A stretch of DNA of 64,000 nt from Ruditapes philippinarum (taxonomy: Eukaryota). The stretch lies in assembly GCF_026571515.1 (NCBI RefSeq), contig NW_026851538.1:22164-86163 (forward strand), written 5' to 3'. Both the position numbers and the translations under genes were made by a program. Shown one piece after another: positions 10,134-64,000 of the stretch; positions within the stretch are counted from its first letter, which is position 1; the number at the start of each line of letters is the position of its first letter. The notes below the pieces were generated by a model, which was given only the letters and a program-made list of their open reading frames with translations, made no database searches and was not told the DNA's origin.

Positions 10134-10195
10134 CTGAAACGATCATGAAACAATCAACTCTTAACTTACTGGAAATTATTAAGCCATTGCCACCA

Positions 10196-10256
10196 GTATA
10201 GAGCCAGGCCAGCCTGCACATCCGTGCAGTCTGACCAGGCTCTATACTGTTGGCAG
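10196..10256. repeat. 60-bp hairpin related to the MITE core (cagtatagagcc...agcctgcacatccgtgcagtct...ggctctatactg)
   Basis: Inverted arms read directly. The core resembles cagcctgcgcatccgcgcagtctga of the MITE family. Confidence 0.5.
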
Positions 10257-15127: not shown

Positions 15128-15290
15128 TGAGCCGTGTCATGACAAAACCAACATAATGCGTTTGCGACCAGCATGGATGCAGACCAGCCTGCGCAGTCTG
15201 ATCAGGATCCATGCTGTTCGCTATCAGCTTCTCTACTTGTAATAGGGTTTGTAAGTGAACAGCATGGATCCTGATCAGACTGCGCTTTGT
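15128..15290. mobile_element. palindromic MITE family copy a (right arm truncated)
   Basis: tgagccgtgtcatgacaaaaccaacataatgcgtttgcgaccagcatgga... matches the copies at 25546, 26158, 29773, 52623 and 63931. Confidence 0.8.
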
Positions 15291-15895
15291 ACATGTAAAT
15301 GACCAAAATGATGTGTATTCTGATCTTTTTTTTTTCAATCTAAGGCAACTTAAGTAAGGTTACAAAAATTAATTTAATGTAAGTTATACAGTACTCCTCT
15401 AATGTGTTGACACAGTAGCAGAATCTTTGTTTCTCTTATGAATTCAAATTCATAATCAATAAGTGAATTGAGATCTTACATATATAACTGATCTGGAAGC
15501 AAACTGCATATACATGTATGTCTCAGCCTCTTATATAATACAAGTATTAACATCACTGTTCTTTTTATGTAACATTAGAACCAACTTAACCCATCCAATA
15601 TCTATCATTATTTACAATGCTGCATGTTTGTAATGTCACTTTTCATTGGATAATCATGATGTTTATATAGTTTTTATATATATGTCTGCTAACAATTTAT
15701 GAAGAAATCTCACATTTTCTCTCACAAAAGACTTTCTCTCAAAAAAGATGCTTGCTGTATTATAAATCTGTTATAAAGATTTCTGACAGGTTATATGGCT
15801 GTACATGTATATGAAACGGCGGTTTGCAATACATACAAAAAGACCATATAATGTGTCAAGAATCTTTATAACTAATAATATTAGCCTTTACTTAC

Positions 15896-16229
15896 TTATC
15901 CTTGTAGATATGCAGTATCCCTTTCACCTTTTCCACAGCAGGATTACCAGAGTAGAAATGGATTGCAGATAAACCTGCCTTGGGTGTTGGACTTTGTGAT
16001 TTGGGTCTCACTCCACTATCTTGTATTACCTTTTCTGAAACATGCTCAGAGTCTGTTACTACCTTCTCTAGAAGTTCTTTCTGCTCCTTTTCATCTTTAT
16101 CAATAGATTTAGCCTTTCTTACTGATAAATCCTTTTTCAATACACCAGCATCTGTTTCTGAAGCGAGGTAAGAGGTCATTGAACTATGACTCGCTTCTAA
16201 ATACGCTTCAATTCCCAGAAGGTCAAAGT
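15896..16229 (-). CDS. BRAP: BRAP N-terminal exon (...DFDLLGIEAYLEASHSS...KAGLSAIHFYSGNPAVEKVKGILHIYKD)
   Basis: Acceptor tttcttgcag, donor gtaagt directly at ...gataa|gtaagt, 2+330+2 nt. The C-terminal part matches human DQISFFSGNPSVEIVHGIMHLYKTNK. The upstream part is a divergent Glu/Lys/Ser-rich region. Confidence 0.75.
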
Positions 16230-16756
16230 CTGCAAGAAATGAAAATAAAAAGGAAATTAAATAATAATTGAACAAAGCTTCACCTCTTACTTTAATAAAT
16301 GCACTATTTCATATTATAATAACATAAGTGTTACCAAAATATTTCCTATGTGAGACATGATGTTATGCATCCCATCCTTGTTAACTTAGTAAATATTTTC
16401 TAATAATGTACTCCCTGAAGGTATGGCGTCCTTGTCAATATGTTATTGGTAATTAGAGCATGTGTTAATTTGCATTTGTAGCACCACCTTTGAACATTGT
16501 AGATGGATCATCTTCTTTCTATTATTGGCTTATACATTTAAGCCAGGGGCATGTATACTTAACTAAAATTAATACCAGTAAAATGCCAGATAAAGACAAT
16601 TAGTTCGTTTATATAATAAAAGTACGGAAATAAAAAGTATCCCAGAGTCGTTAGTTTTGATGCCCTGCTGAGTGTAAAAACACATGACTGAGCAATACTG
16701 CTGTACCAAAGGACACCATCCTATTCAATATACCGGTATATGATGTAAAAATATAC

Positions 16757-17039: not shown

Positions 17040-17400
17040 ATTGTAAGCGGCCAGATAGCTTAGTCTGCAGAGCCACAGTACTGTATTCTGAGGGTCCCGG
17101 GTTCAAGTCCCGGTCAGGCTGCACATTTTTCTCACCCTGTGACATTTGGCCCCCGACGTTGGGCCTTGACTGAATATAGCTCAGAGTTTAATTCACATTG
17201 CTCTGTAAATTCAAGGACAAATTTCAATATAGCAGGGGAGTATGTCATGGTTAAGAACTGTTCACTATTTCAGAGAGACCATGTGTAAGCGGCCACAAAG
17301 CTCAGTTTGTAGAACTGTAGTACGGTATTCCGAGGGTCCTGGGTTTGAGTCCCAGTCAGTGACTCAGTCTGCACATTTTTCTCACCCTGTCACAGTAATT
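17040..17400 (+). mobile_element. two adjacent tRNA-derived SINE copies (17040-17170 and 17285-17400; B-box gggttcaagtccc / gggtttgagtccc, shared tail ctgcacatttttctcaccctgt)
   Basis: The direct repeat of about 120 bp is about 78% identical. Neither copy folds into a cloverleaf with a paired acceptor stem, so these are not tRNA genes. Confidence 0.65.
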
Positions 17401-20400
17401 TTAACATAATTTCCTCATGTTTATCAGTTTATTAATTTGGCGATGTTATAAAGTGTATGAGAAGAATTAACATTTGAATAACATAGTTATAATTGTAAGG
17501 AAAAAATGAAAAATATTCAGTTTTTTTTATCAGAATAGATTAAATAGATCATGATTTTTGATAGATATTAAATAAAATTGACACTTCTGTCAGATAAGGA
17601 AACAATTTACCACTAAATTTTATGTCTGGAACTGAGTCAAATTGATTACAGATTTCAAAACGAATATTTAAGAGTGCGACAGTCATTTGTAAACCGCACA
17701 GATCATAAGAATTTTTGTCATAAACCAGTAGAGTTTAATAAACAACCACTTTCTTTTTTTATTTTCTCTCAGGCAACTAAAAAAGCCGTACAGTATCCGT
17801 ACCTAAACCGTATACAATAACATAACGATTCGCCCAAATGACAATTCGCTCCTTTGAAGATTCGTCCCTATTTAGTGACGATTCGGCCCTTTTCAAACAC
17901 ATTTTCATTAATTTGTAAAATATTTTCCTTTTCGGTAAATTTTCCATAAATGTTTTTTTTTGATAAACAATATTTTATTGTGATTTGGAGATAAAGTTAG
18001 AAAATCATCAATTTAATAGAACCACAGATACATAAAACAATATATAGCTTATATTTAGCTCCATGATAGAACTGATAAATTGAAATTTTGCTAATTGCCA
18101 TTTGTGTGATTTTTATTTAATTGCTACAGTAGTGTTATTAAAATAAAAAAAATGCTTGATATAAAGTCATACCTATTTATTTAATTTATTTAATAATTTT
18201 GTAAAGCATGGCCACATCAGCGTTGTTTGTGTCGTGTGGAGGCTGTAAAAAGTCGCCCCGTACATTCAATCAGGGATGTATATTTCCGATCCTTAAAGAT
18301 AGTTCAGCACAACATAATTGTTGTGCTTGTGGTATTTAAGTTCTTTCTATGTTGGGTGGTTCCAGTATTCCTTACTTGAATACTGTTGAATCACCCTTAG
18401 GATATGTGGCCTGCTTTTTAAATTTGTCTTTTGACGTCATATCTGTGATATGCAGGCTTCATAACCTCAGATCCCCTTTCAAAATTCCATTTTATTTAGT
18501 TCCGCCCATTGTTTTCTCGTTTAGGGCGCAGGCATTTTTTTTACTTGGGGACCATATGCCGCTTTTCATGGAATGGTACTAACGTGTCACATTGTAGGTT
18601 CCATGATAACCTCCATATGAACACATCTGCGGATGTTTCAAAATTCTAAATTTTACCAGTTCATGTTAAATGTTGAATTCTGCTTAAGCCGGTGCTAGGG
18701 GCGTGGACGGTAGTTTGCACTTGACAGTACCGTCCATGAACAGGCTCAATCAAACCAAGCCTGCAACATTTTCAATTTTGCGGCGTTGGGATTTTTATTT
18801 CACTCTATTTTAATATTCTATATATATTATTTGTTGATAATTCTGGTAATTCCAGCATATATTTTGCAGTTAATTGAAGTATTTCTATAAGCGCAACAAC
18901 CAATGTCCTTAACCATTACATTACATTCTTTTTGGGACATAATATAACGTTGCGCTTATTTTCAGGATTCTCCAAGATTCTTCTCATAGATAATTATAAG
19001 ATGACAACAAAAATAAGACAACAACAAAACAACAAACAAAAAACAGTAGTCAGAGACCTGGTAAAGAATAAGGCCTTTTGTTTAACATATTTATTGCGTT
19101 TGTTCGTGTAGAGTGCAACAACTGAAGTCATCAACCAACAGCCAGATAAAATCATTCCAAGGTAATTAACACTTTCAACTAGACAGATAAATGTAAAAGT
19201 AAAACGAGAGAAAGTTTGTATTTTTCCAACACATTCAAAACAATATTTATGTATGTAATGCACCTGGGTTACTGAAAATATCAGAAATGCAGAATAAACT
19301 TATGTAAAAATACCGTTTTATATGTATTTATGTGAAAAATTAAAGTGTATGTGGGAAATACATTGTTAATAATGTTTGTCCAAATCTTTTTTTATTTTGG
19401 TCGATCTTATTTTGCACATTAGAATATTACCTAAATTATATCACTCGGTATATATAAACATTTATCTCCCTTTAAATCAACCTCTAATAATCCCCCAGAA
19501 GTAAACATATATGTATAATTTCTTATTTTGCATTTTCAAATCTTTATTGACAATTTCTATTCCTCTTGTCATTGTAACGGAGTAACAGAGAAAATGTTAA
19601 GTAAGAAGTTCCTGCTAGGGGTAGGGTTAATTGGTTAGTGAAAATCTATTTGTTTAAAAGCAAAGAATCGCTAAATTCCTCATCAAGGGATTGTTCGGCA
19701 ATATCATTTTATTGATTAACCTGTCCATGCCCCTCCTGTTTTTGTTGGGTCCGCCTGGGCTCCTTGCCATTGGTTCTTGTTGCTGGGTCGTGTGGGGTTG
19801 CGTTCATTGAACGCCTTTCCTTGTTGATCTTGTTTATCATATTTGCTATACTTGATATACGTCTTGATGTACTTGATAAAAACGTTGCCAGACATTTTGC
19901 AAATCATAAAACTCTACATGAATGTTAATCGGATTCTGAATTATGTGATATTCAAGCACTGCATGAGGGTCTCATATATAGGTATTCAGTGACCAATCAG
20001 TCAGCCCGCAAGTTGGAGGATGAAGAAGGTTCAATGTTTTGGGCTGACTAGGAGGCCACAATAATATGACAATGGGTCTAAAGTACAATATGCTATATAT
20101 ATCATACCACCCTTTTCAAAAATAATTTGGTGAGGAAAAAATCATATCGTTTAAATATATAACAACATATCTAATAAAATGCACTGAATACTTTTGGAAC
20201 TAGGCGCCTCTTTCTTTAGGTTACTCGCCGCAAATTAATTTTAATAGCGGTCAGACAAAAGGTAATAGTGCCCGTTTTCATTTTCATAGTCAAAATATGT
20301 ATATATCAAATGCTATCTTACTCCATATCTATTCAGGATCAAAGAATTCATATCAATTCATTAATTATTGTACCTGAAGTAACAAAGGTCTGTCAAAATG

Positions 20401-23900: not shown

Positions 23901-25545
23901 CTATAGAATTCTTTTTTACATTATCAGTATATAAACATTAGGATATAACGTATAATTAGATTCATTCATAAAGTTTTATAAACAGGTTGGTGAATTTCCA
24001 TTTTGTACTGGTAGTGATAATTATAGGCTTTGCTACAACAACAAATGTATATAATTATATAGATAGGCCCTACTGGCATGTTGATATATAGTTTGACCTG
24101 AAGCTGTGACCTGATTTCTGCTTAATTTTATGAATTTAACTCTGACATCCCTCTTGTTTACAATGAACTAGTCCAAATAAAAAGCAGGACAAGTTCATTA
24201 ACACAAATTTAGCAGGGTTGTAAGTTATAATATATAAGTGCTGGAATATTATTAATATATATAATATATTGATCACATAATGAAGAACATATGAAAAATT
24301 AGTGTAGAACACAACAGTGTTTTTCCCTGTATACATTCTTTGGCTACCAATGTACATCTGACATCACTGTTAAATCTACTGGAAACAAGTAAATAAAACT
24401 TAGCTGGCAGAAGCTTCATTTTTACATGATTTTTAGCTAGAAATCCAATATTTCTGTAACATTGGTCATTATTAAATATTAACTCCTTTCTGTAGTGTAG
24501 GTCAACAGAGATATTATACTTGATTTTTCTCCCAAGGATGAATAAGTTCTGACCAATGATGTTTTCATAATTGTGTGCTGATTCTTTTGTAGGCTAGAGA
24601 TTATATTTAAAATATTTTGCAATAATGCCAATTGTTATAAAAACCTAACTAATACCTGCTTATTTAAGTCTAACCTGCCTCTATATACTGCCTGCTGCTG
24701 CTTTATTGTAATGTCTGAAATTCCTGAAACAACTAATGCACTGTTCCAAATTCAAATCGGGACAAGTCCACTTCATAAATTCAGGTGAGGTCAGTTAAAA
24801 AACCTTAAGTTGCTGAATTTCTGTACTGGATTTGTCCAGTTTTGAATTTGGAACAGTACATTTGAAATTTGAGGGATTTCAATATTTTTCAAAAATTAAT
24901 AATTGAGCTACCAACAATATAGTGTCAGCCTGGTCAGGCTGCATGTATGTGTAGACTGGCCTGGTTTTGTACTGGGGGTTAAGGCTCTAAGGTAAGGTAA
25001 GGGGGTAAAAATTATCAGTTAAAATAAATAATAAGGTTGTCTTGCATTTTAAGTCAATGTAGTTTAAACAATTAATTTTTTTAAGAAAACCACCTCATAT
25101 AAAGAAGAATTTTCCAAATTGTTTTTATATAATCAGAATAATAGATCAAGGTCGTGTATAGGTAAAAAAACAGCCACATAGTTTTGATAAAGTTTTCTTG
25201 TATAGTAATTATCCTAAATAGACGATTTATACCTGGACCAAGTACACACATTTTTAAGTAATAACCAGTTAACCTGTGTTTATAGTGGTGTATTGAAGTG
25301 TAGCTTTAGTGTAGAGTAGATTAAGTGGGATAGTTGGAAATAATTATGTTGATCTAGCTTTACCTACATTTATATACCTATATAAAACAGAACAGTTGAT
25401 TAACCCAATAAAGCATTTTTCGGTCGGGTGTAACTGGTTGAAAAACTGGTCAGTACTGGTACAGAATCCAGGACCCTTGTTTCTTCAACTGTTAAAAAAA
25501 AAATGTTTGCTAGTTGTACTTTATTGACAAAGTGCCAAGCACAAA

Positions 25546-25782
25546 TGAGCCGCGTCACGACAAAACCAACATAGAGTGTTTGCGACCAGCATGGATCCAG
25601 ACCAGCCTGCGCATCCGCGCAGTCTGATCAGGATCCATGCTGTTTGCTTACCAACCCTATTACAAGTAGAGAAACTGATAGCAAACAGCATGGATCCTGA
25701 TCAGACTGCGTGGATGAGCAGTCTGGTCTGGATCTATGCTGGTCGCAAACACATTATGTTGGTTTTGTTGTGACGCAGCTCA
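25546..25782. mobile_element. palindromic MITE copy b (237 bp)
   Basis: Termini tgagccgcgtcacgacaaaaccaacat ... atgttggttttgttgtgacgcagctca. Internal inverted core cagcctgcgcatccgcgcagtctgatcaggatccatgctg. Confidence 0.85.
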
Positions 25783-26014
25783 AATAATTTTGTAATTGAT
25801 AATTAACACACAATATGGGTTAGTGAAACTACACATTCAGTTATTTATATTGTGAGTTTGCATGATTGTATTGTTTGAAAAAATATGAAAATTAAGAAAT
25901 TGGAATGAAGTAGGTAAGACTTGAGAAAACAATGAAATTTTTTTTTTAAATTAGTAACATGTTGAAAGAAAACTAGAAAATGTTTTAATTGTCTATTTTC
26001 AGAACTGAGTAAAC

Positions 26015-26148
26015 ATGGCAACTAGGAAAGACAACGAGTCTTTGTTCAGAATTCCACCATATTATTATATTCATGTACTTGACCAGAACAAAAATGTTAC
26101 GAGGTTGGAAGTTGGTCCACAGACGTACATCAGGCAGGACAATGAAAG
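26015..26148 (+). CDS. MVP: MVP coding exon 1 ([44 protein letters not shown] + R partial)
   Basis: ATG at 26015, donor gtgaat. Near-identical to human [45 protein letters not shown]. An acceptor-like tctattttcag lies 11 nt upstream of the ATG. Confidence 0.93.
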
Positions 26149-26157
26149 GTGAATATA

Positions 26158-26393
26158 TGAGCCGTGTCATGACAAAACCAACATAATGCGTTTGCGACCA
26201 GCATGGATCCAGACCAGCCTGCGCATCCGCGCAGTCTGATCAGGATCCATGCTGTTCGCTATCAGATTCTCTACTTGTAATAAGAGTTGGTAAGCGAACA
26301 GCATGGATCCTGATCAGACTGCGCAGATACGCAGGCTGGTCTGGTCACGCCAGTCGCAAACGCACTATGTTGGTTTTGTCATGATGCGGCTCA
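26158..26393. mobile_element. palindromic MITE copy c (236 bp), starting 9 bp after the MVP exon-1 donor
   Basis: Same termini and core as copy b. Flanked by tata / tata. Confidence 0.85.
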
Positions 26394-26457
26394 TATATAT
26401 ATAGATCTATATACTGATTTGTTTGTTGTGTTTTTAAACGTTTTTGGTTTTGAATTT

Positions 26458-28737
26458 TTAGCTCACCTGTCACAAAGTGACAGGGTGAGCTTTTGTGATC
26501 GCTTTTCGTCCGGCGTCCGTCCGGCGTCCGTCCGTCCGTAAACTTTTACTTTAAATGACATCTCCTCATAAACCACTAAGCCAATTTCATCCAAACTTCA
26601 CAGGAATGTTCCTTTGGTGGTCACCTTTAAAAATTGTTCAAAGATTTTAATTCTATGAAGAACTCTGGTTGCCATGGCAACCGAAAGAAAAAACTTTAAA
26701 TATCTTCTTTTAAAAAACCATAAGAGCTAGAGCTTAGATATTTGGCATGAAACATCTTCTAGTGAGTGTCTACCAAGTTTAACAAATAAAAGCCCTGGGG
26801 TCAAAATTGGCCCCGCCCCGGGGGATCATTGATTTTCCCTATATACATATAGTAAAAAATTAAAAAATCTTCTTTTAAAGAACCATAAGAGCTAGAGCTA
26901 AGATATTTAGCATGAAACATGTTCTAATAGGTGTCTACCAAGTTTGTTCAAATAAAAGCCCTGGGGTCAAAATTGGCCCCGCCCCGGGGGGTCATTGATT
27001 TTCCCTATATACATATACTAAAAACTTAAAAAATCTTCTTTTAAAGAACCATAAAAGCTGGAGCTAAGATATTTAGCATGAAACATTTTCTAATGGGTGT
27101 CTACCAAGTTTGTTCAAATAAAAGCCCTGGGGTCAAAATTGGCCCCGCCCCGGGGGGTCATTGATTTTCCCTATATACATATAGTAAAAACTTAAAAAAT
27201 CTTCTTTTAAAGAACCATAAGAGCTAGAGCTAAGATATTTAGCATGAAACATGTTCTAATGGGTGTCTACCAAGTTTGTTCAAATAAAAGCCCTGGGGTC
27301 AAAATTGGCCCCGCCCCGGGGGGTCATTGATTTTCCCTATATACATATAGTAAAAACTTAAAAAATCTTCTTTTAAAGAACCATAAAAGCTAGAGCTAAG
27401 ATATTTAGCATGAAACATTTTCTAATGGGTGTCTACCAAGTTTGTTCAAATAAAAGCCCTGGGGTCAAAATTGGCCCCGCCCCGGGGGGTCATTGATTTT
27501 CCCTATATGCATATAGTAAAAACTTAAAAGATCTTCTTTTAAAGAACTCAAAGAGCTATGGCTAAGATATTTAGCATCAAACATGTTCTAATAGGTGTCT
27601 ACCAAGTTTGTTCAAATAAAAGCCCTGGGGTCAAAATTGGCCCCGCCCCAGGGGGTCATTGATTTTCCCTATATGCATATAGTAAAAACTAAAAAAATCT
27701 TCTTTTAAAGAACCAAAAGAGTTAAAGCTAAGATATTTAGCATGAAACATGTTCTAATAAGTGTGTACCAAGTTTGTTTAAATAAAAGCCCTAGGGTCAA
27801 AATTGGCCCGACCCCCGGGGGGTCATTGATTTTCCCTATATGCATATAGTAAAAACTTAAAAAATCTTCTTTTAAAGAACCAAAAGAGCTAGAGCTAAGA
27901 TTTTGAGCATGAAACATGTTCTAATAGGTGTCTACCAAGTTTGTTCAAATAAAAGCCCTGGGGTCAAAATTGGCCCCGCCCCTTGGGGTCATTGATTTTC
28001 CCTATATGCATATAGTAAAAACTTAAAAAATCTTCTTTTAAAGAACCAAAAGAGTTAAAGCTAAGATATTTAGCATGACACATGTTCTAATAAGTATCTA
28101 CCAAGTTTGTTCAAATAAAAGCCCTTGGGTCAAAAATGGCCCCGCCCTGGAGGATCATTGATTTTCCCTATATGCATATAGTAAAAACTAAAAAAAATCT
28201 TCTTTTAAAGAACTCAAAGAGCTATGGCTAAGATATTTAGCATGAAACATGTTCTAATAAGTGTCTACTAAGTTTGTTCAAATAAAAGCCCTGGGGTCAA
28301 AATTGGCACCGCCCCGGGGGTCATTGATTTTCCTTATATGTGTATAGCAAAAACTTAAAAAATCTTCTTTGAAAAAACCCAAATAGCTAGAGTTAAGATA
28401 TTAAGCATGAAACATCTTCTAGTAAGTGTCTACAAAGTTTGTTCAAATAAAAGCCCTGGGGTCAAAACTGGCCCGGCCCCAGGGGTGTCATTGTTTTTAA
28501 CTATATGTGTAAAGTAAAAACGTTAAAAAATCTTCTTTCAAAAAGCCCAATGAGCTAGAGCTTAGATGTTTAGCATGAAACATCTTCTTATGGGTGTCTA
28601 CCGAGTTTGTGCAAATAAAAGCCCTTGATTTAAATTGGCCCTGAAACGTTGGGGGGGAGGGGGGGTGAGGGGGGGCCTATATACAGGTGAGCGACCTCAG
28701 GGCCATCATGGCCCTCTTGTTTTATTTTTTTGGGTTT
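26458..28737 (+). mobile_element. 2.3-kb satellite-carrying element (pearl/CvA/Helentron-like): 5' hairpin agctcacctgtcacaaagtgacagggtgagct, then (CGTC/CCGT)n, a unique segment of about 200 bp, about 12 units of about 165 bp, a G-rich tail, and a 3' palindrome gggccatcatggccc ending ...ctcttgttttatt
   Basis: aaagccctggggtcaaaattggccccgcccc recurs every 164-166 bp from 26800 to 28620. Near-identical to 44026-46389 in the same orientation. Lies in MVP intron 1. Confidence 0.85.
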
Positions 28738-28892
28738 TTTTTTTGTGTTTGTGTGTTTTTTTAAGTGGCAAAATTTTATAAGGTGTACAGTCCCCAGAGC
28801 AACATCTTTTGGATTTTTGTTGATGCTAAGAGTGGTTGCTGTAGAATGCACAAGAGCTTGACATATAATTTCTTTTGATAATTGAAAAAAAA

Positions 28893-28980
28893 TAGAAAAA
28901 AATTAAGAAATGCCGGCAAATATACCCCTCTATACAATATATTTATTGTATAGAGGGGTATATTTGCCGTTATTTCTTAA
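28893..28980. repeat. near-perfect palindrome of about 85 bp (arms aattaagaaatgccggcaaatatacccctctatacaatat)
   Basis: The reverse complement of the right arm equals the left arm, with 2 mismatches over about 40 bp. Confidence 0.8.
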
Positions 28981-29548
28981 TTATTTGCTTATATTTTTCA
29001 TTTATTGATAGAATGTCAAGCTCCTGAGGTAGGAAGGTAAGATTTATTGTCCAGCCTTACCTGTTGAAGAGTACTGTTGTTGTAGAGAGGTGGTTGTTCT
29101 ACAGAGGTTTGGTTGTCCAGTACAGGTTGCACTATATTTTATTATTGTCCATTTTTTTGATGACATAAAAGAAAGGATACTAAGTTGACTGTGGCTTGAT
29201 GATTTAATTGTCTGTCTGTTAACACAGAAATATTTGGCTCAGATTCTGCTGGGGTCATGCAAATGTTTTGTCATATGACATCAGTTGGGTTTGTTCTGGG
29301 AAAAAAAAAATGTTTTTTTTAGAGTGGTACAAATTAGCACAGAGCTTAATAATTATAAGTCTCTAAAATAACCCACCCGGTTATATTCTTCGCAATTAAG
29401 CATTAAAACCAACAAAAGGAAATATTCTGTAGTATAATTAATTATATTTATACAGGTTTTTTTCTAGTTGATGATGATAAAAAAAAATGAACAGTTTCCC
29501 ATTTAATTGAATATTTCTGTAAAATAACGAAGATTTGATCGATTTTAG

Positions 29549-29744
29549 GGTGGTTATTGGCCCAGAAAAGATGATCACAGTGCCACCCAGGCATTACTGT
29601 GTCATCGAGAATCCAGCCTTGAGAGATAAAGATAACAGTGTTCTCCTTGATAAGAGCGGTCAAGTCCGGCTTTTACACGCTGACCAAGAGATCAGACTTG
29701 CCCAGGATCCCTTCCCACTTTATCCTGGAGAGGTTCTTAAACAG
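29549..29744 (+). CDS. MVP: MVP exon 2 ((R)[65 protein letters not shown])
   Basis: Acceptor gattttag, donor gttggt, 1+195 nt. Human [65 protein letters not shown]. Confidence 0.93.
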
Positions 29745-29772
29745 GTTGGTCTGTTTATTCTTTCTTAAAAAT

Positions 29773-29970
29773 TGAGCTGTGTCAGGACAAAACCAACACA
29801 GTGCGTTTCGACCAGCATGGATCCATACCAGCCTGCGCATCTGCGCAGTCTGATCAGGATCCATGCTGTTCACTATCAGTTTCTCTACTTGTAATATAGT
29901 TGGTAAGCAAACGGCATGGATCCATGCTGGTCGCAAACGCACTATGTTAGTTTTGTCGTGACGTGGCTCA
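29773..29970. mobile_element. palindromic MITE copy d (198 bp), 29 bp after the MVP exon-2 donor
   Basis: tgagctgtgtcaggacaaaaccaacac ... tgttagttttgtcgtgacgtggctca. Confidence 0.8.
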
Positions 29971-30792
29971 AATAATATTAAGCTTTATTTGTTGTATTAT
30001 AAGTGATGTATTAAGAAAATATTGATGAAATAAAATGCTTATTTTCATTTTCCTATTTTCACTTTAAAAATTTATTTTTCACTGCAGTGAAATATATTTT
30101 CCATATTTTCACTGGTGTCTTGAAAATTATCATATATATTTTCATACCACTTGATGAAATAAATCCTTTATTTATAGAAAAAAGTTGAATCTTGATTAAA
30201 AAAAAATTTTATCAAAATTTAAAATGTATCTAAATGGAAGGAATGATGTTTGTAAACTTATAATAAAACTAAAATTAGGTATCATTTAACCAGGGCTCAA
30301 CTTGCAAAGCTGGTCATATTTAAGGAAGTTACCTTAAAATTTTTATTGTCAACAAGGATCATTTCAAGTGATATATTTTGTAATTGTATATTTTTATACT
30401 GTTTACTTCTTTAAGATTTTTATATACCTCAATCATGTATCTACTGATCATATTTAATTAAGGAAGTAACGTCAGAAATCCTATCTTCAACAAGTCTCAT
30501 TGCAAGTTGCTGTGTCACATACACTCTTCCCTATAGGGTGCATGATACACAGTCTGTGAAACGTAATAAGGCTAAAAAGGAAGCAATGTTAAGATTAAAC
30601 TACCTGCACAAAGATATAATTTATCTTGAATAACTTCCTTATTCTTTATAAAATTGATATTAGGTCAGTGGTCTTGTTAAAAACGATAAAAACATTCTAA
30701 ACATGTTCAGTGTACATGTAATTGTAAATTAACTTTTTTGTAACAATGTGTCATTTACATAATTATATAAAAAGTTTTCAATAATTTTTCAG

Positions 30793-30916
30793 GCTGTAAC
30801 TCCGCTGAAAGTTGTGGCCCCTAACTCGGCCTTAAGATTACGTGCAATATTAGACTTTGAAGATGATACAGGGGAAAAGAGGACCGCTGGTGACGAGTGG
30901 CTGTTTGAGGGACCAG
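30793..30916 (+). CDS. MVP: MVP exon 3 ([41 protein letters not shown] + G partial)
   Basis: Acceptor ttttcag, donor gtaaga, 124 nt. Human [41 protein letters not shown]. Confidence 0.93.
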
Positions 30917-31335
30917 GTAAGAATCCCAATCATCTTTGTTGGGTAGGACAGAAAGGTTAAATGAGTGCATCCCTTGGCTGGTTACTTTGGACAAGTTTGA
31001 CTGTATTCACTAAATACCTACACAGGTGACAATATCTTAACAATGATGTGTATCTCACGTTAATGTGCAAGTAATTATATGAAGGTGTATACCATTCACC
31101 AAATTGGTCATTTTTACTTTGAAACAAAAAGCCAGCAACAGTCAGAAATAAAGAAAGCCGAAATTATAAACCCCTTGTCATTGCAAAAATCGTACATTAG
31201 CATTATGTACTTATATGTACTTATTGTACAAGTCCAGAGAATGGGATTGATTGGGATATTTGTAATGAATTTTTGGTGGGGACTTATTTTTCGGAAACTA
31301 AACAAATTGTTTCTTAAATTACTGCTTTCATTTAG

Positions 31336-31688
31336 GTACCTATATACCAAGGAAAGAGGTCGTGGTAGAGGAAACGGTTCGAGCCACTATCATCAAGCCT
31401 AACCAGGCCATCCGGTTACGTGCACGTAAAGAATGCATTGATAGAGAGGGTAACGCACGTGTAACAGGTGAGGAATGGGAAGTGAAGAAGACAGGAGCTT
31501 ACCTGCCAGGAGCGTATGAAGAAGTTGTAGATATTGTTAATGCATATGTGCTAACGGAGAAGAAGGCGCTCCATATGAGGTCGTTGAGGACATTCAAGGA
31601 TGATTTCGGTGTTACACGTAAAAACGGTGAAGAATGGCTTATCACCATGGACATGACAGAAACACATATCCCGAATGTGTACGAAGAG
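31336..31688 (+). CDS. MVP: MVP exon 4 ([47 protein letters not shown]...HIPNVYEE)
   Basis: Acceptor tcatttag, donor gtcagt, 2+351 nt. It is part of listed ORF 31362-31751. Human [49 protein letters not shown]...HVPDVHEE. Confidence 0.93.
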
Positions 31689-32053
31689 GTCAGTTTCTTT
31701 TTGAAATACATACATTCTCAGGATGCATATTCTCATGATCTATTAATGTAGTATATAATAAAGTAATCTGACGAAAATTATAAACAATATCAATGAAGAA
31801 TAATGGTATCGGTAATGGTTGTGGTATAATGTATTCTTTTCTGTTTTGTTGATTGAATTTTTACTACTTTTCTTTGGAAGTTTGTTCCTAACTAAGTTAC
31901 TTAGTGCAACATATTATTTTTGAACATTGATTAAAAAAGAAAGACAGAAATACAAAAAGATGATTTTAAAAAAAAACAACAACACCAAAAACTCAAACCT
32001 TATTTAAATTTAGATTCTTTAATTTATTTTGTCATACAAATTTATACCTGTAG

Positions 32054-32164
32054 GTTGTTGGAGTTGTCAACATCACATCTCTCAGTAACAGACACTACTG
32101 TGTCATCTTAGACCCTGTAGATGAGAAGGGCAGACCACAGATGGGAAGGAAAAAGCTGGTCAAG
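32054..32164 (+). CDS. MVP: MVP exon 5 ([37 protein letters not shown])
   Basis: Acceptor tacctgtag, donor gtatgt, 37 codons. Human [37 protein letters not shown]. Confidence 0.92.
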
Positions 32165-32439
32165 GTATGTATAGTCTGAAAAGATATTTAATTAAATACA
32201 GTGTATCCTTAAGAAACAGAATGAAGTCTAACTGATTGCTAAGCTCAATATGGAGAGTATTTGAAAAGTAATCTAGGAGACGCTGGTTGGTTCCTCGGGC
32301 AAGGCGTAATTTCTCCATGACCAATTGGTCTTGGACATTGATTCTAATGTTCATTTATTTCTCACTGCTGATTTAGTAATGATATTAGTAGTTGGTCACT
32401 TGTGGGGAAATTAATTTATTGGTTAGTTTTCAAGGAAAG

Positions 32440-33840
32440 CTTGTTATGCCCCCACAATGTGGGAGCATATAGCGTTGCACTTGTCCATCCTTCCGTCTGT
32501 CAGTCCGTACGTCCCGAAATCTTGTGAACGCAACTCCTCTTAAACCGGATGGCAGATTTTGCTTAAACTTACAGGGATGAACAACCTTAATGTGTAGATG
32601 GTAGTAAAGGAAGGAATTTTCGCTGCGACCAAATTTAACAGAATTATGGCCCTTTGTTGATTTTTTCACTTTATACTATGTAGAAATTTTGTGAACGCAA
32701 CTCCTCTTAAACCGGATGGCAGATTTTGCTTAAACTTCCAGGTATGAACAAACTTAATGTATAGATGGTAGTAAAGGAAGGAATTTTTGCTGCGACCAAA
32801 TTTAACAGAATTATGGCCCTTTGTTGATTTTTTCACTATATACTATGTAGAAATTTTGTGAACGCAACTCCTCTTAAACCGGCTGGCATATTTTGCTTAA
32901 ACTTACAGGGATGAACAACCTTAATGTGTAGATGGTAGCAAAGGAAGGAATTTTTGCTGCGACCAAATTTAACAGAATTATGGCCCTTTGTTGATTTTTT
33001 CACTATATACTATGTAGAAATTTTGTGAACGCAACTCCTCTTAAACCGGATGGCAGATTTTGCTTAAACTTCCAGGGATGAACAACCTTAATATGTAGAT
33101 GGCAGTAAAGGAAGGAATTTTCGCTGCGACCAAATTTAACAGAATTATGGCCCTTTGTTGATTTTTTCACTATATACTATGTAGAAATTTTGTGAATGCA
33201 ACTCCTCTTAAACCGGATGGCAGATTTTGCTTAAACTTCCAGGGATGAACAACCTTAATGTGTAGATGGTACCAAAGGAAGGAATTTTTGCTGCGACTAA
33301 ATTTAACAGAATTATGGCCCTTTGTTGATTTTTTCACTATATACTATGTAGAAATTTTGTGAACGCAACTCCTCTTAAACCGGAGGGCAGATTTTGCGTA
33401 AACTTCCAGGGATGAACAACCTTAATATGTAGATGGCAGTTAAGGAAGGAATTTTCGCTGCGACCAAATTTAACAGAATTATGGCCCTTTGTTGATTTTT
33501 TCACTATATACTATGTAGAAATTTTGTGAATGCAACTCTTCTTAAACCGGATGGCAGATTTTGCTTAAACTTCCAGGGATGAACAACCTTAATGTGTAGA
33601 TGGCAGTAAAGGAAGGAATTTTTGCTGCAACCAAATTTAACAGAATTATGGCCCTTTGTTGATTTTTTCACTATATACTATGTAGAAATTTTGTGAACGC
33701 AACTCCTCTTAAACCGGATGGCAGATTTTGCTTAAACTTCCAGGGATTAACAACCTTAATGTGTAGATGGTAGTAAAGGAAGGAATTTTTGCTGGGACCA
33801 AATTTAACAGAATTATGGTCCTTTGTTGATTTTTAGTTTT
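32440..33840 (+). mobile_element. satellite-carrying element in MVP intron 5: head ttatgcccccacaatgtgggagcatatag, (GTCC/CCGT)n-like stretch, then about 8 tandem units of about 160 bp (gaaattttgtgaacgcaactcctcttaaaccggatggcagattttgcttaaactt...)
   Basis: Units start near 32515, 32682, 32841, 33001, 33161, 33321, 33491 and 33651. The head is homologous to the one at 6340. Confidence 0.7.
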
Positions 33841-34504
33841 CAACTTGTGGCACATGTAGTCCAAAAATATTTGACCTAGAGTCATAAGATTGACAGAACA
33901 GTGGCGTGTGGGGGCATCAGTGTCCTATGGACACATTTCTAGTTTAAGTGGGTCTTCTAAAGAGTTATTAAAGAAAACATGTGTTGCAAAAATGATTTAT
34001 AAACAAAATCAAAATAAGTCATATGCCAGAAATTTAGACATTCATGATGCATGGTTTGAAAATTTTGATGAAATTATTATTTGTTTTACTTCATTGCATT
34101 TCTCACCACAATTTAATCCTTAAATGGAATCAGAATAGCTTTTTTTTCACCACTTCAGAGCTTGGTAAGACTTGGCCCTATACTGTAGGCTGAGCAACTT
34201 GAGAACTGTCATTAAGATATCCAAAATTGATAATAACTTTCCTATGAATCAAAACAGGATAGTTTATTTAAAAAAAATATGGTATGTGTTGATTCAAATA
34301 CTTAAAATGTTGAGGACTAAATACTGCTAAAACATGTGCTAGGGAGGTGAAAGATGTAGCATCTTCCCTTATATGTCATGGCTAAATACAACCAAGTGAG
34401 CAATTTTTGACAATCCTTTTTTTGTTTTCATTGATATGCCCTTTATTAGAATGTTCAGGAATAAATTTTAAAATGTGACCATGAATATATTTTTTGATTT
34501 ACAG

Positions 34505-34624
34505 GGAGAAAAGACATTTTTCTTGATGCCCGGTGAGCGACTTGAGAGAGGAATTCAAAATGTATATATCCTAGGTGAAGACGAGGGTCTCATCCTGAGA
34601 GCTAACGAGAGTTTCAAAGATGGC
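34505..34624 (+). CDS. MVP: MVP exon 6 ([40 protein letters not shown])
   Basis: Acceptor gatttacag, donor gtaagt, 40 codons. Human [40 protein letters not shown]. Confidence 0.92.
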
Positions 34625-35178
34625 GTAAGTAATTTGAATTATTTCAGAAATATTCTATATATATAAATTACGTGCTTAATGCCAATAAGTAATGCAGTAA
34701 TGAAAGCAGCGAAAAGCAGCTCCTGAAAAATGGAGGATTTTGAGTTTAATTTTTAAACATTTAAACTTTCTAAGCTGAATGGGCTTCTAATTGTATGTTT
34801 TCACTAGATAGACAACTTTCAAAGTTAGTAGAAATATAAAAACTATATTTTTGAATATTGAATGTGAGGAACGTATCCAGCTACCTTATTGAACTGGGTG
34901 GTTCTACTTGGGTGCCAGCTTGTGTCTGAAATAATGCAGAGAGGGAGAGCCAAAGTTTTCCTCCAATAGTCAAGCTGGAAAGTCTTAGGCATGACTTTCA
35001 CACTGTTGATGTGACTTAAAATCCAACAAAAATAAATGCATGAACAAGTACATCCAACAATTTTACTATGAGATAATGATACGTGTTCATTTAGATTTCC
35101 ATGATTTTTATTACACAGACTATATTGTGATCATTTTACATGTAGAATGTTAAAATAACTTTCCTAAACATTATAAAG

Positions 35179-35328
35179 GAGGTGGATCGTAAGCCAGGAG
35201 ATAGATGGATGATCAGAGGCCCTAAAGAATATGTTCCCCCCGTAGAGGTAGAGGTGGTGATGAAACGACAGGCCATTCCCCTTGATGAGAACGAGGGTAT
35301 ATATGTCAGAGATGTTAAAACTGGCAAG
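35179..35328 (+). CDS. MVP: MVP exon 7 ([50 protein letters not shown])
   Basis: Acceptor ttataaag, donor gtatac, 50 codons. Human [45 protein letters not shown]. Confidence 0.92.
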
Positions 35329-36050
35329 GTATACTTGATTATTTTACATTAATGCTGCATGCCTCCAGATGAGTCGAAATATTTCACGAAAATCAGAGTT
35401 GAGAAAAAATGTACTGAAATTTTATGAAAAGTAAAATGATTGAAAATTTTGGTAATAGTTTCCATGTTATGGGCTGTAATGACTGAATTTGTAGTAGTTT
35501 TCACCATAATTCTACTGTGTGACAAATACAGTTAGGGCTATATTAGCATATTTTGACCTCATTTTAGTAATAAACACAGATTGTAAGTTCTGTTTGTAAT
35601 GTGGAAATAACTTTCTTTGTTCACTTCACAATATAGTGCTTTTCAAAACATTTTTCAAAATTTTCATGAAAATTAACATGAATCTGGAGGCATGCTGCTT
35701 TAAGTTTGAGAATTTTCAGTAATTTTCTACAGAAACATATATATATAGTTGATCTATGCTTAAAGTTAACCGTCAAGATTTCAATACTTCTGACACACAT
35801 TTACACCCATTAATCAGCAATACTTGATGCTTTATCTAGGTGTAGCCAATAAATTTTATTGCTCTTGTTACATCAAATCATATCTTTTATAGTACATATA
35901 TGAGGGATTTCTTTTTAATGATAAACTGGAAATCTTTTTCGGCTGTACTACTGGAACTGTTTTCAATCCTGTAGATGAAAAAAGATTATTTTTAGAAAAG
36001 TTTATGATATACACATAAGGATGTTAGTAAATGTTTATTATTACATTTAG

Positions 36051-36286
36051 GTAAGAGCAGTTACAGGGGAGACCTACATGCTAAATCATGATGAGGAACT
36101 CTGGTCAAAGGAACTTCCTCCCGCAGTCGAGAACCTGCTAATGGCAGCTAAAGACCCGCTAGCTGACCGCAATACGAAAGGTGCACCAGAAGCCGGAAAG
36201 GCTCGTGACAAGACACGGGTTATCACATTTAGAGTGCCACACAATGCCGCTGTACAGATTTATGATTATAAGGAGAAAAAAGCTAG
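36051..36286 (+). CDS. MVP: MVP exon 8 ([40 protein letters not shown]...[18 protein letters not shown] + R partial)
   Basis: Acceptor ttacatttag, donor gtaaga, 236 nt ending in phase 2. Human [40 protein letters not shown]...[19 protein letters not shown]. Confidence 0.92.
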
Positions 36287-36429
36287 GTAAGAATGGTAAA
36301 TATGGCGGGAAAATTGGTTGAAAGAAAGTCGTCTGCTGCAATATTGTTATATTCTTTTTAATTTTCTGTTTACATGACATATAATATTGTGGTATCATAT
36401 AATATAGTGGTATGATAGTGTTTGTTGCG

Positions 36430-36670
36430 AAACCTCCGGTGTCCATAGCCAAGTGATTATGGTTGTTGACTTCTGACCACTTTCCCATCACTTCTGTGGG
36501 CTCGAGACTTCCTTGAGATTTTTTTTCTTTCATGTGAGGAAGCCAGTCAGCTAGCTAACATTACATTTGTGGTTCTATTTGGGTGCCCCTTCATGTTTGT
36601 GCGAAGGGACACCTGAGGTCTTCGATCTTCCTCGTCATATGACCTCTACTAGGATGGTGCAATGTAAAAA
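36430..36670 (+). mobile_element. tRNA-derived SINE (family with core gtgcc(c)ctgaaat...cacctgaggt) in MVP intron 8
   Basis: Homologous to 46415-46660 and 57890-58130. Partial copies at 34860-34990 and 39310-39460. Confidence 0.6.
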
Positions 36671-36860
36671 AACAACCAAAACAACAAAAGAAACCTGTTA
36701 TGTAATAATGTAGACACTAAAATTTATGTACTTGTATGTATGAAAACTTGTATTTTTGCACAATTGATATGTGCATTTGTACAATAAAGAATATTATGTC
36801 ATGTATTTATCATGTCAAGTTCATTTTTCTGTAAAACAAAAAATTTTGCCACTTTTTCAG

Positions 36861-37058
36861 AGTTATTTTTGGACCAGAATTAGTTATGCTTGGCCCAGAT
36901 GAACAATTCACACAGCTCAGTATTTCTGGTGGTAAACCAAAGAAACCAAACATGATCAAATCACTTTGTCTTCTTCTCGGACCAGATTTCTGCACAGATA
37001 TCATTGTAGTCGAGACATCTGACCACGCAAGGCTCTCACTTCAACTGTCATACAATTG
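36861..37058 (+). CDS. MVP: MVP exon 9 ([65 protein letters not shown] + W partial)
   Basis: Acceptor actttttcag, donor gtaagt, 198 nt. Human [66 protein letters not shown]. Confidence 0.93.
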
Positions 37059-37254
37059 GTAAGTAGACTGAACAGCACATTTAGAATGTGATGCTAAGAA
37101 AAAATTATAAATATATATATGTCATGAATTTTTTTTTTTGGAATTTGAAATTCAATTAAAATTAAATTTTATTCCCAAGTTTAATGATAAAGATTCCATA
37201 AGTTTCAGAACGGTTAGAGTTTAAGGAATGATAAATTTAGTTTATACGAATTTA

Positions 37255-37455
37255 TTTTAGTTTGATTGTGTTGGAAGCTATAAACTTATTGAAACACTCT
37301 CGAATCTGTTCCTGGAATTAACCAGTACTTGGCAACGAGTGTAAAATTTCTTGCTCAAGGAAACAACGGCTTTCCGCTAACTGGGTTTGAATATTTGCGG
37401 CCAGCAGTCCTTAGATTACTAGTCTGACGTGTTGACCACTCGGCCACGCCGCCAC
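37255..37455 (-). mobile_element. tRNA-derived SINE (minus orientation; head ggccgagtggtcaacacgtcagactagtaatctaagg) in MVP intron 9
   Basis: Homologous to 53545-53710 (minus orientation). Shares its tail with the fragment at 4000-4135. Confidence 0.65.
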
Positions 37456-37685
37456 ACATATTGTAATAGATACAACGTACATGTTTTGTTTGTTTTAATA
37501 ACATCATAGTTTGCTTTACGTTTTATGTGACTTGATAAAGGTTTTCAGGACGACAGCTAGATAGATAGATTCTCTTGTACATCTGTTTTCCTAAAATATT
37601 TATAATGAACATATCTACTATAATCCCTTTTAACACTGTTGATAATCTTGCTTGGTAGTGCTTCTAACATTCTAGCATTTTGCAG

Positions 37686-37830
37686 GCATTTTGAAGTTAA
37701 AAGCAAAGACGACACCGTTGAGTCTGCCAAACTATTCAGTGTTCCTGATTTTGTAGGCGATTCTTGTAAAGCTATCGCATCTCGTGTGAGAGGTGCTGTT
37801 GCCCAAGTCGCCTTTGATGATTTTCATAAG
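37686..37830 (+). CDS. MVP: MVP exon 10a ((W)[48 protein letters not shown])
   Basis: Acceptor ttttgcag, donor gtatgt, 1+144 nt. Human [48 protein letters not shown]. Confidence 0.9.
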
Positions 37831-37880
37831 GTATGTTCAAAATGATTGTTGTAAGTATTTAAAACATTTTGACTTTTCAG

Positions 37881-38025
37881 GCACTTTGGCATAGAGAATA
37901 AGAAAGATGGCGTGGATGCTGCTAAATTGTTCAGCGTGCCAGATTTCGTTGGTGATGCTTGCAAAGCTATCGCCTCTCGTGTCAGAGGGGCCGTAGCTCA
38001 AGTGGCTTTCGATGATTTCCACAAG
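37881..38025 (+). CDS. MVP: MVP exon 10b, a tandem duplicate of 10a ((W)[48 protein letters not shown]). Predicted mutually exclusive with 10a.
   Basis: Acceptor gacttttcag, donor gtatcg, 145 nt, same phase as 10a, 50 nt downstream of it. Using both would add 145 nt and shift the frame. The two copies differ mainly at synonymous sites. Confidence 0.8.
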
Positions 38026-38963
38026 GTATCGCTTTTAGAAAAAAGAATGTGTGTGGTTTTGCAAATTCCCTTAAACCATTGATTTGATACAAAAAAATTA
38101 ATATAAAGAGAAAATTTCTTAATACATGTACACCTGCCTGCTGTGCTATGTTATGAAATTTCGATCCAATTCCTCTAAGTTGTCAAAAATCTACTCACCA
38201 GTGCTGAACCCAAGAGTAAATTAATAATTCTATTCAAATCCTTCAGAATCCATTTAATTTTATAGTAAACACGAAAAATGTATCTTATAAACCTTAAACT
38301 TTTAACACTTTTTAACTTTATTACCAAAACTTGTTTAACATCAAACGTATTTCCAATGGTTTTTGGAATGAAAAAAAATGTTTGTTTTAATACCCCCCCC
38401 CCCCACCCAGCCTTCGGAAAATGTTAGTTAGGGGCATTTTATAGAAATAATACGTTGCTATATGTTGCTCATTTGAGTAGGGATTATACCTTTTAGCAAT
38501 GATGATGTGCATGGGCCATTTGTTCCTAGGGAAACATAATATTTTTTTTCTTACACATTAAGGAAGTTTTTTTTTTCAAAATTCAAAAAGTAATTTTCAT
38601 AGCTATGGGTAGCTGATATATAGCTTTACACACTTAAAAAGATACAGAACAAATGTAGTTAAAAAACATTATTATAAAAAATTATGTACATACTCTGTAC
38701 AAGTTCAAAGTTTCAACATCTCATTTGTAAATTTTAAATGGTTGGTATTATAGTTAAAGTGTCTGCCTCTGAAATCAGAGGTTGTTGGTTAAATCCCTAC
38801 TTTGATGACCACCATGTTTCCTAATATTGTTTATTGGAGCCGGGATAAAGATTGGTTAAAATGAGCTCTTTTCCAATTTAATCGTATTCGAGCTGAAATA
38901 TGTATATTTAACTAGCACCATGGGTAGACTTTTTACTGATGACATGTTTTTTGCTTGTTACAG

Positions 38964-39175
38964 AATTCAGCTAGAGTTATCCGATCGTCTGTGTTTGGTT
39001 TTGATGAGAAGGACAAAGTTCGAGATGTGTTTGTTTTCAAGCAGAATAATCTATACATCACAAGTATTGATATCCAGTCCGTGGAACCTGTCGATCAGCG
39101 TACACGTGACTCGCTACAGAAATCTGTCCAACTGGCCATTGAAATCACCACCAACTCCCAGGAAGCTGCAGCCAG
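38964..39175 (+). CDS. MVP: MVP exon 11 ([70 protein letters not shown] + R partial)
   Basis: Acceptor cttgttacag, donor gtaatg, 212 nt. Human NSARIIRTAVFGF...[37 protein letters not shown]. Confidence 0.93.
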
Positions 39176-52437: not shown

Positions 52438-52582
52438 ATGGCGGTTTCGTACCGATGTCTTTTACTGGCGTTGCTATGCTGCCAAGTGAACCTAATGGAA
52501 TGTTTTATGCTAGCAAGTAGGTCACTTCCAGCGGTTAAATTGAGCATGTTAAAACCACAAGGGATCAGATTTTCATTTCCAG
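52438..52582 (+). CDS. beta-1,3-glucanase / LGBP-like gene exon 1: signal peptide and start of betaGRP N-domain (MAVSYRCLLLALLCCQVNLMECFMLASRSLPAVKLSMLKPQGIRFSFP)
   Basis: ATG at 52438, hydrophobic signal, donor gtaatg. LPAVKLSMLKPQGIRFSFP matches the insect betaGRP N-domain VPSAKLEAIYPKGLRVSVP. Preceded by an A-rich low-complexity stretch. Confidence 0.75.
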
Positions 52583-52622: not shown

Positions 52623-52768
52623 TGAGCCGCGTCACGACAAAACCAACATAATGGGTCTGCGACCAGCACGGATCCAGACCAGCCTGCGCATCCCCTCTGA
52701 TGCGCAGGCTGGTCTGGACCCATGCTGGTCGCAAACGCACTATGTTGGTTTTGTCGTGACGCGGCTCA
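52623..52768. mobile_element. palindromic MITE copy e (146-bp near-perfect palindrome), 41 bp after the glucanase exon-1 donor
   Basis: tgagccgcgtcacgacaaaaccaacataatgggtctgcgaccagcacggatccagaccagcctgcgcatcccctctgatgcgcaggctggtctgga...gcggctca. Confidence 0.85.
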
Positions 52769-63652: not shown

Positions 63653-63930
63653 GTAATGATTTATTGTATTAAATAATATATCTTTAGTGAAAATACATGC
63701 ATACCCTTATGACAATCATGAATAATGTAGTGACAAGGCCGCATATATTTGTAAAACAATTTTGTGCATTTTTATTGACATTGGGTGTAAATTAATGCTT
63801 GCAAACATCTATCCTTGTTTTCTCCTTTAAAAAGCAACTCTTCTCCTGGCGTCGTATCTTTCTTATTCAGGCCATGCCCCCCCCCCCCCCCCCGCCTATC
63901 CCGTCAGCAACTTGAATAACTAATAATATA

Positions 63931-64000
63931 TGAGCTGCGTCACGACAAACCCAACATAATGGGTTTGCGAGCAGCATGGATCCAGACAAAAACATAATAT
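63931..64000. mobile_element. palindromic MITE copy f (left arm only; cut off by the window end)
   Basis: tgagctgcgtcacgacaaacccaacataatgggtttgcgagcagcatggatccagac. Confidence 0.7.

Follow-up and report, generated by a model that had tools for sequence, protein, structure and literature searches.

A stretch of 64,000 nucleotides of the genome of the clam Ruditapes philippinarum (contig NW_026851538.1, positions 22,164 to 86,163; here called the window) contains six copies of a palindromic miniature inverted-repeat transposable element (MITE), several of which lie directly beside exons. MITEs near and inside genes are commonplace. The first-pass annotation of the window had noticed that three of these copies begin shortly after 5' splice donors, and had offered two readings of this: an insertion preference near open or transcribed 5' regions, or a selected role as an intronic structured element affecting splicing or transcription. 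Insertion preference is the better of the two, restated here as a preference for AT-rich AWWT sites (W being A or T). The explanation we favour, with a probability of roughly 0.6, is that a Sola2-like MITE inserts into very AT-rich AWWT DNA, of which exons have the highest density on either flank, and that the self-folding insert is tolerated there without helping splicing.

The consensus of the element was built from ten copies found in the window and in a second source, the Joint Genome Institute (JGI) sample 3300049158. It is 237 bp long with 54% GC and forms a near-perfect palindrome ending in TGAGCC...GGCTCA, with terminal inverted repeats (TIRs) of 27 nt or longer. Along the consensus, 106 of 118 positions are paired with the one mirrored across an asymmetric loop of 25 nt, and each arm has a 66-bp core hairpin nested within it. 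Individual copies differ from the consensus by 3.8-9.3%; in four complete copies the 27-nt termini are inverted at both ends, and arms of 70-103 nt are 92-93% complementary. Identical 4-bp flanks were found in 8 of 15 copies (AAAT four times, ATAT twice and ATTT twice), where we estimate about 0.03 per copy for a chance match; the flanks of the remainder are one or two mismatches off. The target site duplication (TSD) is 4 bp, AWWT, with the caveat on its register that, given the terminal T and A of the element, a 2-bp WW duplication with a preference for flanking A and T yields the identical string. TIRs, a TSD, a small non-coding size and many dispersed copies (six in 64 kb, 385 clusters of open reading frames (ORFs) in the JGI sample, and extra copies at the loci L030 and L035 of that sample) are the features of a MITE, and the repeats are best explained as a non-autonomous cut-and-paste DNA transposon whose copies are decaying. 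A Pfam search over 120 ORFs that read through MITE copies found no domain common across members, each family having matched one member, and the hits that were traced (EF-hand, Dpy19, CDC20 WD40) fall in flanking exons and not in the MITE.

Sola2 elements have been described with AT-rich 4-bp AWWT duplications, namely ATAT, AAAT and ATTT (PMC3627910). Because the duplication spectrum of the clam MITE equals this published spectrum, we file it as a MITE that, judged by the duplication pattern alone, is probably mobilised by a Sola2-type transposase. Autonomous Sola2 elements and transposases are known from bivalve genomes (PMC10294476). Like the non-autonomous members of Sola2, the clam MITE combines TIRs with AWWT duplications, but unlike the described examples, which have TIRs of 12-21 bp, it is a near-perfect palindrome over its entire 237 bp, with the nested 66-bp core. 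The family is a previously undescribed one. Three other duplication registers were considered and rejected. A TA duplication as in Tc1/mariner (Stowaway-like) elements does not agree with the central dinucleotides AA, TA and TT, since only two of the eight perfect cases can be read as TA. For a 3-bp TWA duplication as in PIF/Harbinger (Tourist-like) elements no register gives matching flanks, and an 8-bp register did not fit either. With foldback or long-hairpin MITEs such as Stowaway and Tourist the clam element shares its small size, non-coding nature, high copy number, AT-rich targets, frequent occurrence in introns and long hairpins, whereas its duplication is neither the TA of the former nor the TWA of the latter. 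Among bivalve elements, the tandem-repeat MITE DTC84 of Donax trunculus (PMC3879986) is likewise a high-copy non-autonomous element, but the clam MITE lacks internal tandem repeats and is unrelated to it in sequence.

In the window, nine element ends matched the terminal motif with at most two mismatches and six matches to the core motif were found, with zero expected in both cases. Self-comparison of the window returned six MITE copies and one 68-bp relative consisting of the core only. Both results bear out the six copies of one palindromic MITE that had been proposed to start at 15128, 25546, 26158, 29773, 52623 and 63931.

Three copies begin shortly after a donor. The full-length copy at 26158..26393 (236 bp, TSD ATAT/ATAT) starts 9 nt past the end of coding exon 1 of the major vault protein (MVP) gene, which extends on the plus strand from the ATG at 26016 to 26148, is followed by the donor GT at 26149 and has 88% amino acid identity to the MVP of Mactra antiquata; the junction reads GAAAG, then GTGAATATA, then TGAGCC. 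Its predicted hairpin has 104 pairs and -184 kcal/mol (z = -23.5). The copy at 29773..29970 (198 bp, 7.1% from the consensus, flanks AATT/AAAT with one mismatch) carries a 38-bp deletion in one arm and starts 28 nt past the end of MVP coding exon 2 (29549..29744, plus strand, donor GT at 29745); its predicted fold is branched, with 78 pairs. The third, at 52623..52768, is a short form of 146 bp, a single palindrome without the central 90 bp, with TSD AAAT/AAAT and both TIRs identical to the motif (65 predicted pairs, -129 kcal/mol, z = -23.4). It starts 40 nt past the end of exon 1 of a glucanase-like gene (52438..52582, plus strand, donor GT at 52583), an exon with a start codon and a hydrophobic N-terminal stretch that is likely a signal peptide. 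The distances first given for the three copies, 9, 29 and 41 bp, were thus right within one base.

There are three further copies. A full-length copy at 25546..25782 (237 bp, flanks AAAT/AAAT, 103-nt arms 92% complementary, 4.6% from the consensus, 105 predicted pairs, -193 kcal/mol) is located upstream of the MVP start codon at 26016, either in the promoter or in an intron of the 5' untranslated region, and its intronic status is not demonstrable from sequence. The copy at 15128..15285 (158 bp) is truncated and has lost one TIR; it lies in intron 1 of a BRAP-like gene, at a distance of 608 nt from the preceding donor and of about 185 nt from the acceptor that follows, and only an inner hairpin of 32 bp is left. 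At 63931..63987 the left end of a further copy, with about 57 bp recognisable, is found 278 nt after the donor of the exon 63530-63652, close to the end of the window at 64000. Just upstream of this copy, the glucanase-like intron has a run of about 19 C (63876-63894). The earlier statement that all six copies are intronic and less than 300 bp from an exon boundary is only partly right: the copy at 15128 is farther than that from its donor, though not from its acceptor, and the copy at 25546 is not demonstrably intronic. Similarly, a hairpin of 70-115 bp had been ascribed to every copy; this describes the copies at 25546, 26158 and 52623, but neither the branched fold at 29773 nor the small remnant at 15128, and of the copy at 63931 only the 57 bp are recognisable.

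The core-only relative is a 68-bp mini-palindrome at 10187..10254 (27 predicted pairs, -44 kcal/mol); the acceptor of the BRAP-like exon that ends at 10133 follows about 54 nt downstream. A 93%-identical copy is present in the JGI sample (L028, 6676-6746), and the mini-palindrome represents a separate, very short family which shares a module with the 237-bp element. Two other, unrelated foldbacks at 28870-29013 and 24716-24881 have arms of 69-70 nt that are 81-84% complementary; one of them lies inside MVP intron 1.

Uniform insertion into the non-exonic DNA of the window would put three or more of the six copies no farther than 41 nt behind a donor with a probability of about 3e-4 when 37 exons are modelled and of about 1e-4 when 29 are; the corresponding value for any exon edge is about 7e-4 to 3e-3. 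All P values for the window are post hoc and are based on three donor-proximal copies. The insertion sites are themselves AT-rich: over 15 nt to either side, the mean AT content of 13 reconstructed sites is 81.5%, compared with 67.1% in introns. Intron DNA has 73.7% AT at 8-41 nt from exons versus 65.8% deep in introns, and the density of AWWT is 8.7% near exons versus 5.3% deep in introns (1.6 times). When the candidate sites were limited to AWWT in at least 77% AT (the target model), the share of such sites lying no more than 41 nt from an exon edge rose 2.3-2.6 fold, and the window P values became 1.6e-3 for donors and 8e-3 for any edge. Much of the excess is thus accounted for by the choice of target.

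The MITE thus integrates into a 4-bp AWWT target in very AT-rich surroundings and duplicates it. The most AT-rich intron DNA and the densest AWWT of this genome are those of the first and last few dozen intron bases, and copies therefore land beside exons, on the donor and on the acceptor side. According to the favoured explanation, insertions in exons or splice signals would be removed by selection and those just outside would survive. Once transcribed, the palindrome could snap into a closed hairpin, which would add little effective distance between the splicing signals. Open or linker chromatin adjoining exon-positioned nucleosomes might give additional guidance, and the three donor-proximal copies in the window would reflect a general exon-edge tendency plus sampling luck. 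Survivorship, by which near-exon copies would be protected from deletion and older, was rejected: in the copy at 52623 the CpG-rich TIRs are intact, and divergence is no greater in near-edge copies than in the others.

As a proxy for a census, the translated MITE was searched in a protein collection, a search which retrieves only ORFs of 126-225 amino acids and yields a biased sample. It returned 385 "hypothetical proteins", which are gene-caller ORFs read through MITE copies. The 120 matches listed (P0121-P0240) are all JGI records, and nine of nine contigs fetched belong to sample 3300049158. Since this sample shares with the window the MITE family, at about 80-90% identity, and other repeats as well, its sequences indicate the same or a closely related species. 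When DNA was scanned with the TIR pattern TGAGCNNNNNCANGNCAAAACCAACA, one chance match was obtained in viral contigs and 23 in JGI metagenome contigs, none of them with the rest of the element.

Few of the 120 listed ORFs run in frame into real exons; DNA was fetched for eight, and six have interpretable exon junctions. All six MITE copies are located 14-21 nt from the exon edge. On the acceptor side they lie at -14 nt from an EF-hand (calumenin-like) exon in L029, at -20 nt from a PIK3R4-like exon (middle domain) in L031, and at -21 nt from an nAChR-like exon (ligand-binding domain) in L032, which was missed by Pfam and has weak support from a PDB sequence search. On the donor side they lie at +20 nt from a Dpy19 exon in L030, at +19 nt from a CDC20 WD40 exon in L033, and at +18 nt from an unnamed exon in L035 with clean splice sites on both sides. 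Because three copies are on the donor side and three on the acceptor side, the closeness to exon edges is not donor-specific. The exons concerned encode internal protein domains and are not recognisable first exons. Thus, of the proposed preference for open or transcribed 5' regions, the excess of exon-edge copies over uniform insertion stands, but it is neither specific for donors nor demonstrably linked to 5' or open regions. The acceptor-side copies are situated between the usual branch-point zone and the AG; from what is generally known of splicing, this should be tolerable only if the palindrome loops out or if a branch point inside or behind it is used.

Some details of this data set deserve mention. 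As an exon detector for the ORF flanks, Pfam gave four cases only, and a composition classifier was of modest power. P0220 (L036) was dropped as an acceptor-side case, its "exon" having no convincing acceptor. The flank of P0134 was rejected as a host exon; instead it has a weak likeness to the Rep HUH motif region (E about 0.6 against PDB), which suggests a Rep-encoding element or a viral fragment nearby. In L033, at about 673-708, the donor GT of the CDC20 exon is followed by an 8-nt match to the right end of the MITE (ACGGCTCA), then by ATAT and then by the start of an internally deleted copy; the match may be a trace left at this position by an earlier copy or by an excision. Finally, some of the 385 read-through "proteins" include, in the same frame, sequence from real exons (EF-hand, Dpy19, CDC20, PIK3R4).

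To simulate the effect of the ascertainment, the window was cleared of its resident copies, real MITE copies were inserted at each of its non-exonic positions, and the same ORF-length filter was applied. With uniform insertion at the exon density of the window, 8.5% of the MITE-ORFs would be exon-bearing, versus about 5-7.5% observed among the 120. Because the observed share does not exceed the simulated one, the family overall is not strongly concentrated at exons. The element was within 21 nt of the edge in 16-28% of the simulated exon-bearing ORFs under uniform insertion versus six of six observed. The target model raises the expected share to 47%, and six of six then has a P of about 0.011.

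These numbers bear on the possibility that we are looking at sampling luck, that is, at near-random insertion into the AT-rich non-coding DNA of a repeat-rich, exon-dense window, noticed post hoc. The small number of donor-proximal copies and the choice of the 41-nt threshold and of the donor as the feature after looking at the data are in line with it, as are the copies located far from exon edges, such as those at 15128 (608/185 nt) and 63931 (278 nt) and, in L030 and L035, a second copy separated from the donor by about 900 and 1050 nt, respectively, and also the share of exon-bearing MITE-ORFs, which lies below that predicted by uniform insertion. However, the nominal P value is at most 0.008 even under the most favourable target model, and in the independent sample all six exon-adjacent copies are within 21 nt where 16-47% would be expected. 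We therefore consider luck as the whole explanation to be quite unlikely.

Several observations weigh against the preference for AT-rich AWWT sites as a sufficient account. After the target model was applied, an excess at exon edges was left over, both in the window (1.6e-3 and 8e-3) and in the JGI sample (0.011), so sequence preference alone may be insufficient. The model is also partly circular, its threshold having been taken from the same sites, and is based on 29 exons, while the JGI copies were found via ORFs spanning from an exon into the MITE, an ascertainment which was modelled only approximately. Five of the six window copies are located in or before the first two introns (rough P of about 0.003 by our own arithmetic), for which an AT preference gives no explanation. 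Last, no candidate for an autonomous partner with matching TIRs was found in the window, and Pfam scans of its larger unassigned ORFs were empty. Taken at their face value, the leftover numbers mean that an exon-edge bias beyond sequence preference may be real, but it is not established.

If it is real, the transposase could be guided by chromatin. A preference for nucleosome-free or linker DNA is common among DNA transposons and is on record for Hermes and the MITE-like introners (PMC9860276, PMC3579700), and an enzyme using such DNA at the edges of exons, which at about 150-200 bp carry positioned nucleosomes, and at active 5' ends would give motif-independent peaks 10-40 nt into introns on both sides. 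The excess remaining after the sequence model, the tight spacing (9-40 nt in the window, 14-21 nt for the six JGI copies), the length of the exons involved (about 130-200 nt) and the position of five of the six window copies, which are not farther into their genes than the second intron, would all agree with this. On the other hand, AT-richness is confounded with nucleosome depletion, making chromatin guidance hard to separate from sequence preference, and the JGI copies stand beside internal-domain exons and not beside recognisable first exons. At present we regard chromatin guidance as rather unlikely.

The second reading of the first-pass annotation, a selected role, would have the hairpins kept to modulate splicing or transcription, for example by polymerase pausing, by shortening the effective intron or by supplying double-stranded RNA for editing or small RNAs. 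The predicted hairpins are indeed very stable, and copies are found immediately beyond the splice-signal footprint on either side. Non-autonomous DNA transposons are as a rule scarcer near splice sites, as shown for class 2 elements in grasses (PMC3579700); that several copies of the clam MITE abut splice sites is opposite to this trend and mildly unusual. A comparison of orthologous introns, however, did not support a role: no MITE was found at the same positions in four related MVP loci (L001, L002, L003 and L034), the 37-kb locus of Mactra antiquata (L034) contains no copy anywhere, and in two other related species MVP introns 1 and 2 are free of the element. The species of L001 has an independent family member, 73% identical, in MVP intron 1. 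Its orthology with the copy at 26158 was rejected, since identity within the window family is about 80-90% and the distance from the donor is 273 nt instead of 9 nt.

The pattern of substitutions also speaks against a selected role. Changes in the stems are one-sided in 94 cases and compensatory in six, and 58 of 136 substitutions (43%) are at CpG, although CpG accounts for 15% of the positions, as expected for methylated junk. One of the donor-proximal copies has an arm deletion (29773) and another is a short form (52623). An Rfam search gave no family match for the MITE, and in folding predictions for the exon-intron junctions the hairpin was not seen to sequester the 5' splice sites. Accordingly, a role in splicing or transcription is highly improbable in our view, and the copies, for which no function is demonstrated, appear to be eroding neutrally.

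We also considered an introner-like origin, in which the MITE would have generated the introns by landing in exons and either bringing or recruiting the splice sites. Introner elements of Micromonas, Aureococcus and other aquatic eukaryotes have DNA-transposon features including TIRs and short duplications, are close to splice sites and have a proposed preference for nucleosome linkers (PMC9860276), and the clam MITE has the TIRs, the short duplications and the closeness to splice sites in common with those of algae. In contrast to introners, the clam copies supply no splice sites and sit in older introns of 1.0-3.4 kb, far longer than the element, and the same intron positions exist without it in L001, L002, L003 and L034. 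Moreover, in L029 and L031 there is no exon within reach on the other side of the element. At the loci examined, an introner origin is refuted, and overall we give it next to no weight.

The exon maps on which the distances are based were made as follows. The window DNA is eukaryotic, with 34% GC, and three genes rich in introns can be recognised in it. The minus strand carries a BRAP-like RING/ZnF-UBP gene with exons from about 16230 down to 4476; its first recognisable coding exon is 15894..16230 on that strand, with the donor at about 15893 and an approximate upstream end. The MVP gene follows on the plus strand, its 13 coding exons spanning 26016 to 42236, and a CBM39-bearing glucan-binding or glucanase-like gene extends on the plus strand from 52438 to past the window end, with CBM39 in the downstream exons. 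The tblastn probes were human MVP and BRAP sequences and were used for exon location only; P0241 then served to verify the MVP map. Of the named species returned, Mactra antiquata has the closest MVP (72% identity over an incomplete model of 695 amino acids), which points to a heterodont clam other than Mactra antiquata itself. Per exon, the two genes are 83-98% identical at the protein level and 73-83% identical at the DNA level, and their introns are unalignable.

Two differences in exon structure were observed in MVP. The exon for approximately residues 538-592 is a tandem pair in the window (37672-37842 and 37882-38031) and single in Mactra antiquata (L034, 23747-23907), which may be a lineage-specific exon duplication or a mutually exclusive exon pair. 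Another exon, single in the window (31335-31691) and in Mactra (L034, 14220-14591), corresponds to two exons in L002 (11801-12043 and 13454-13585) and marks an intron gain or loss in MVP among clams. Between MVP and the glucanase-like gene, at 47369-48500, minus-strand ORFs of 102, 156 and 73 amino acids have a coding-like composition; a Pfam scan of them gave no match, and they could represent a gene missed by annotation or what is left of a transposon.

The window is rich in other repeats. Seven arrays of 156-168 bp tandem repeats are found in intronic and intergenic positions (1349-1701, 6425-7545, 13227-14216, 26689-28625, 32516-33834, 40575-41076 and 44254-46312), two of which, 26689-28625 and 44254-46312, have one monomer in common. 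The element around 26.4-28.7 kb opens with a short hairpin, ctcacctgtcacaaagtgacagggtgagc, at about 26461-26489. The arrays resemble tandem-repeat-carrying mobile elements of clams (PMC3879986). The sole Rfam match in the window is a tRNA-like region at 17049-17121 on the plus strand (39.5 bits), adjoining near-duplicate ORFs at 17064-17406; it is probably a pair of copies of a tRNA-derived short interspersed nuclear element and not a tRNA gene.

As it stands, the finding is a piece of routine repeat annotation, a new Sola2-like MITE family in a clam. It is of practical relevance that 385 "hypothetical proteins" in a database are non-coding MITE read-through, which is a source of spurious families in metagenome catalogues. 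If the exon-edge bias should prove to be genome-wide, it would bear on how transposases read exon-associated chromatin or composition, and on the amount of structured insertion that the splicing machinery can accept between branch point and acceptor. It is tempting to speculate, though the odds are clearly against it, that the family truly targets intron DNA some 10-40 nt away from the exon, at donors and acceptors alike, beyond its AT preference, for example linker DNA next to exon-positioned nucleosomes, and that the palindrome lets it persist even at -14 to -21, between the branch-point zone and the 3' splice site. In that case the MITE would be a natural reporter of exon-marked chromatin and a rare example of a transposon that is enriched rather than depleted at splice sites.

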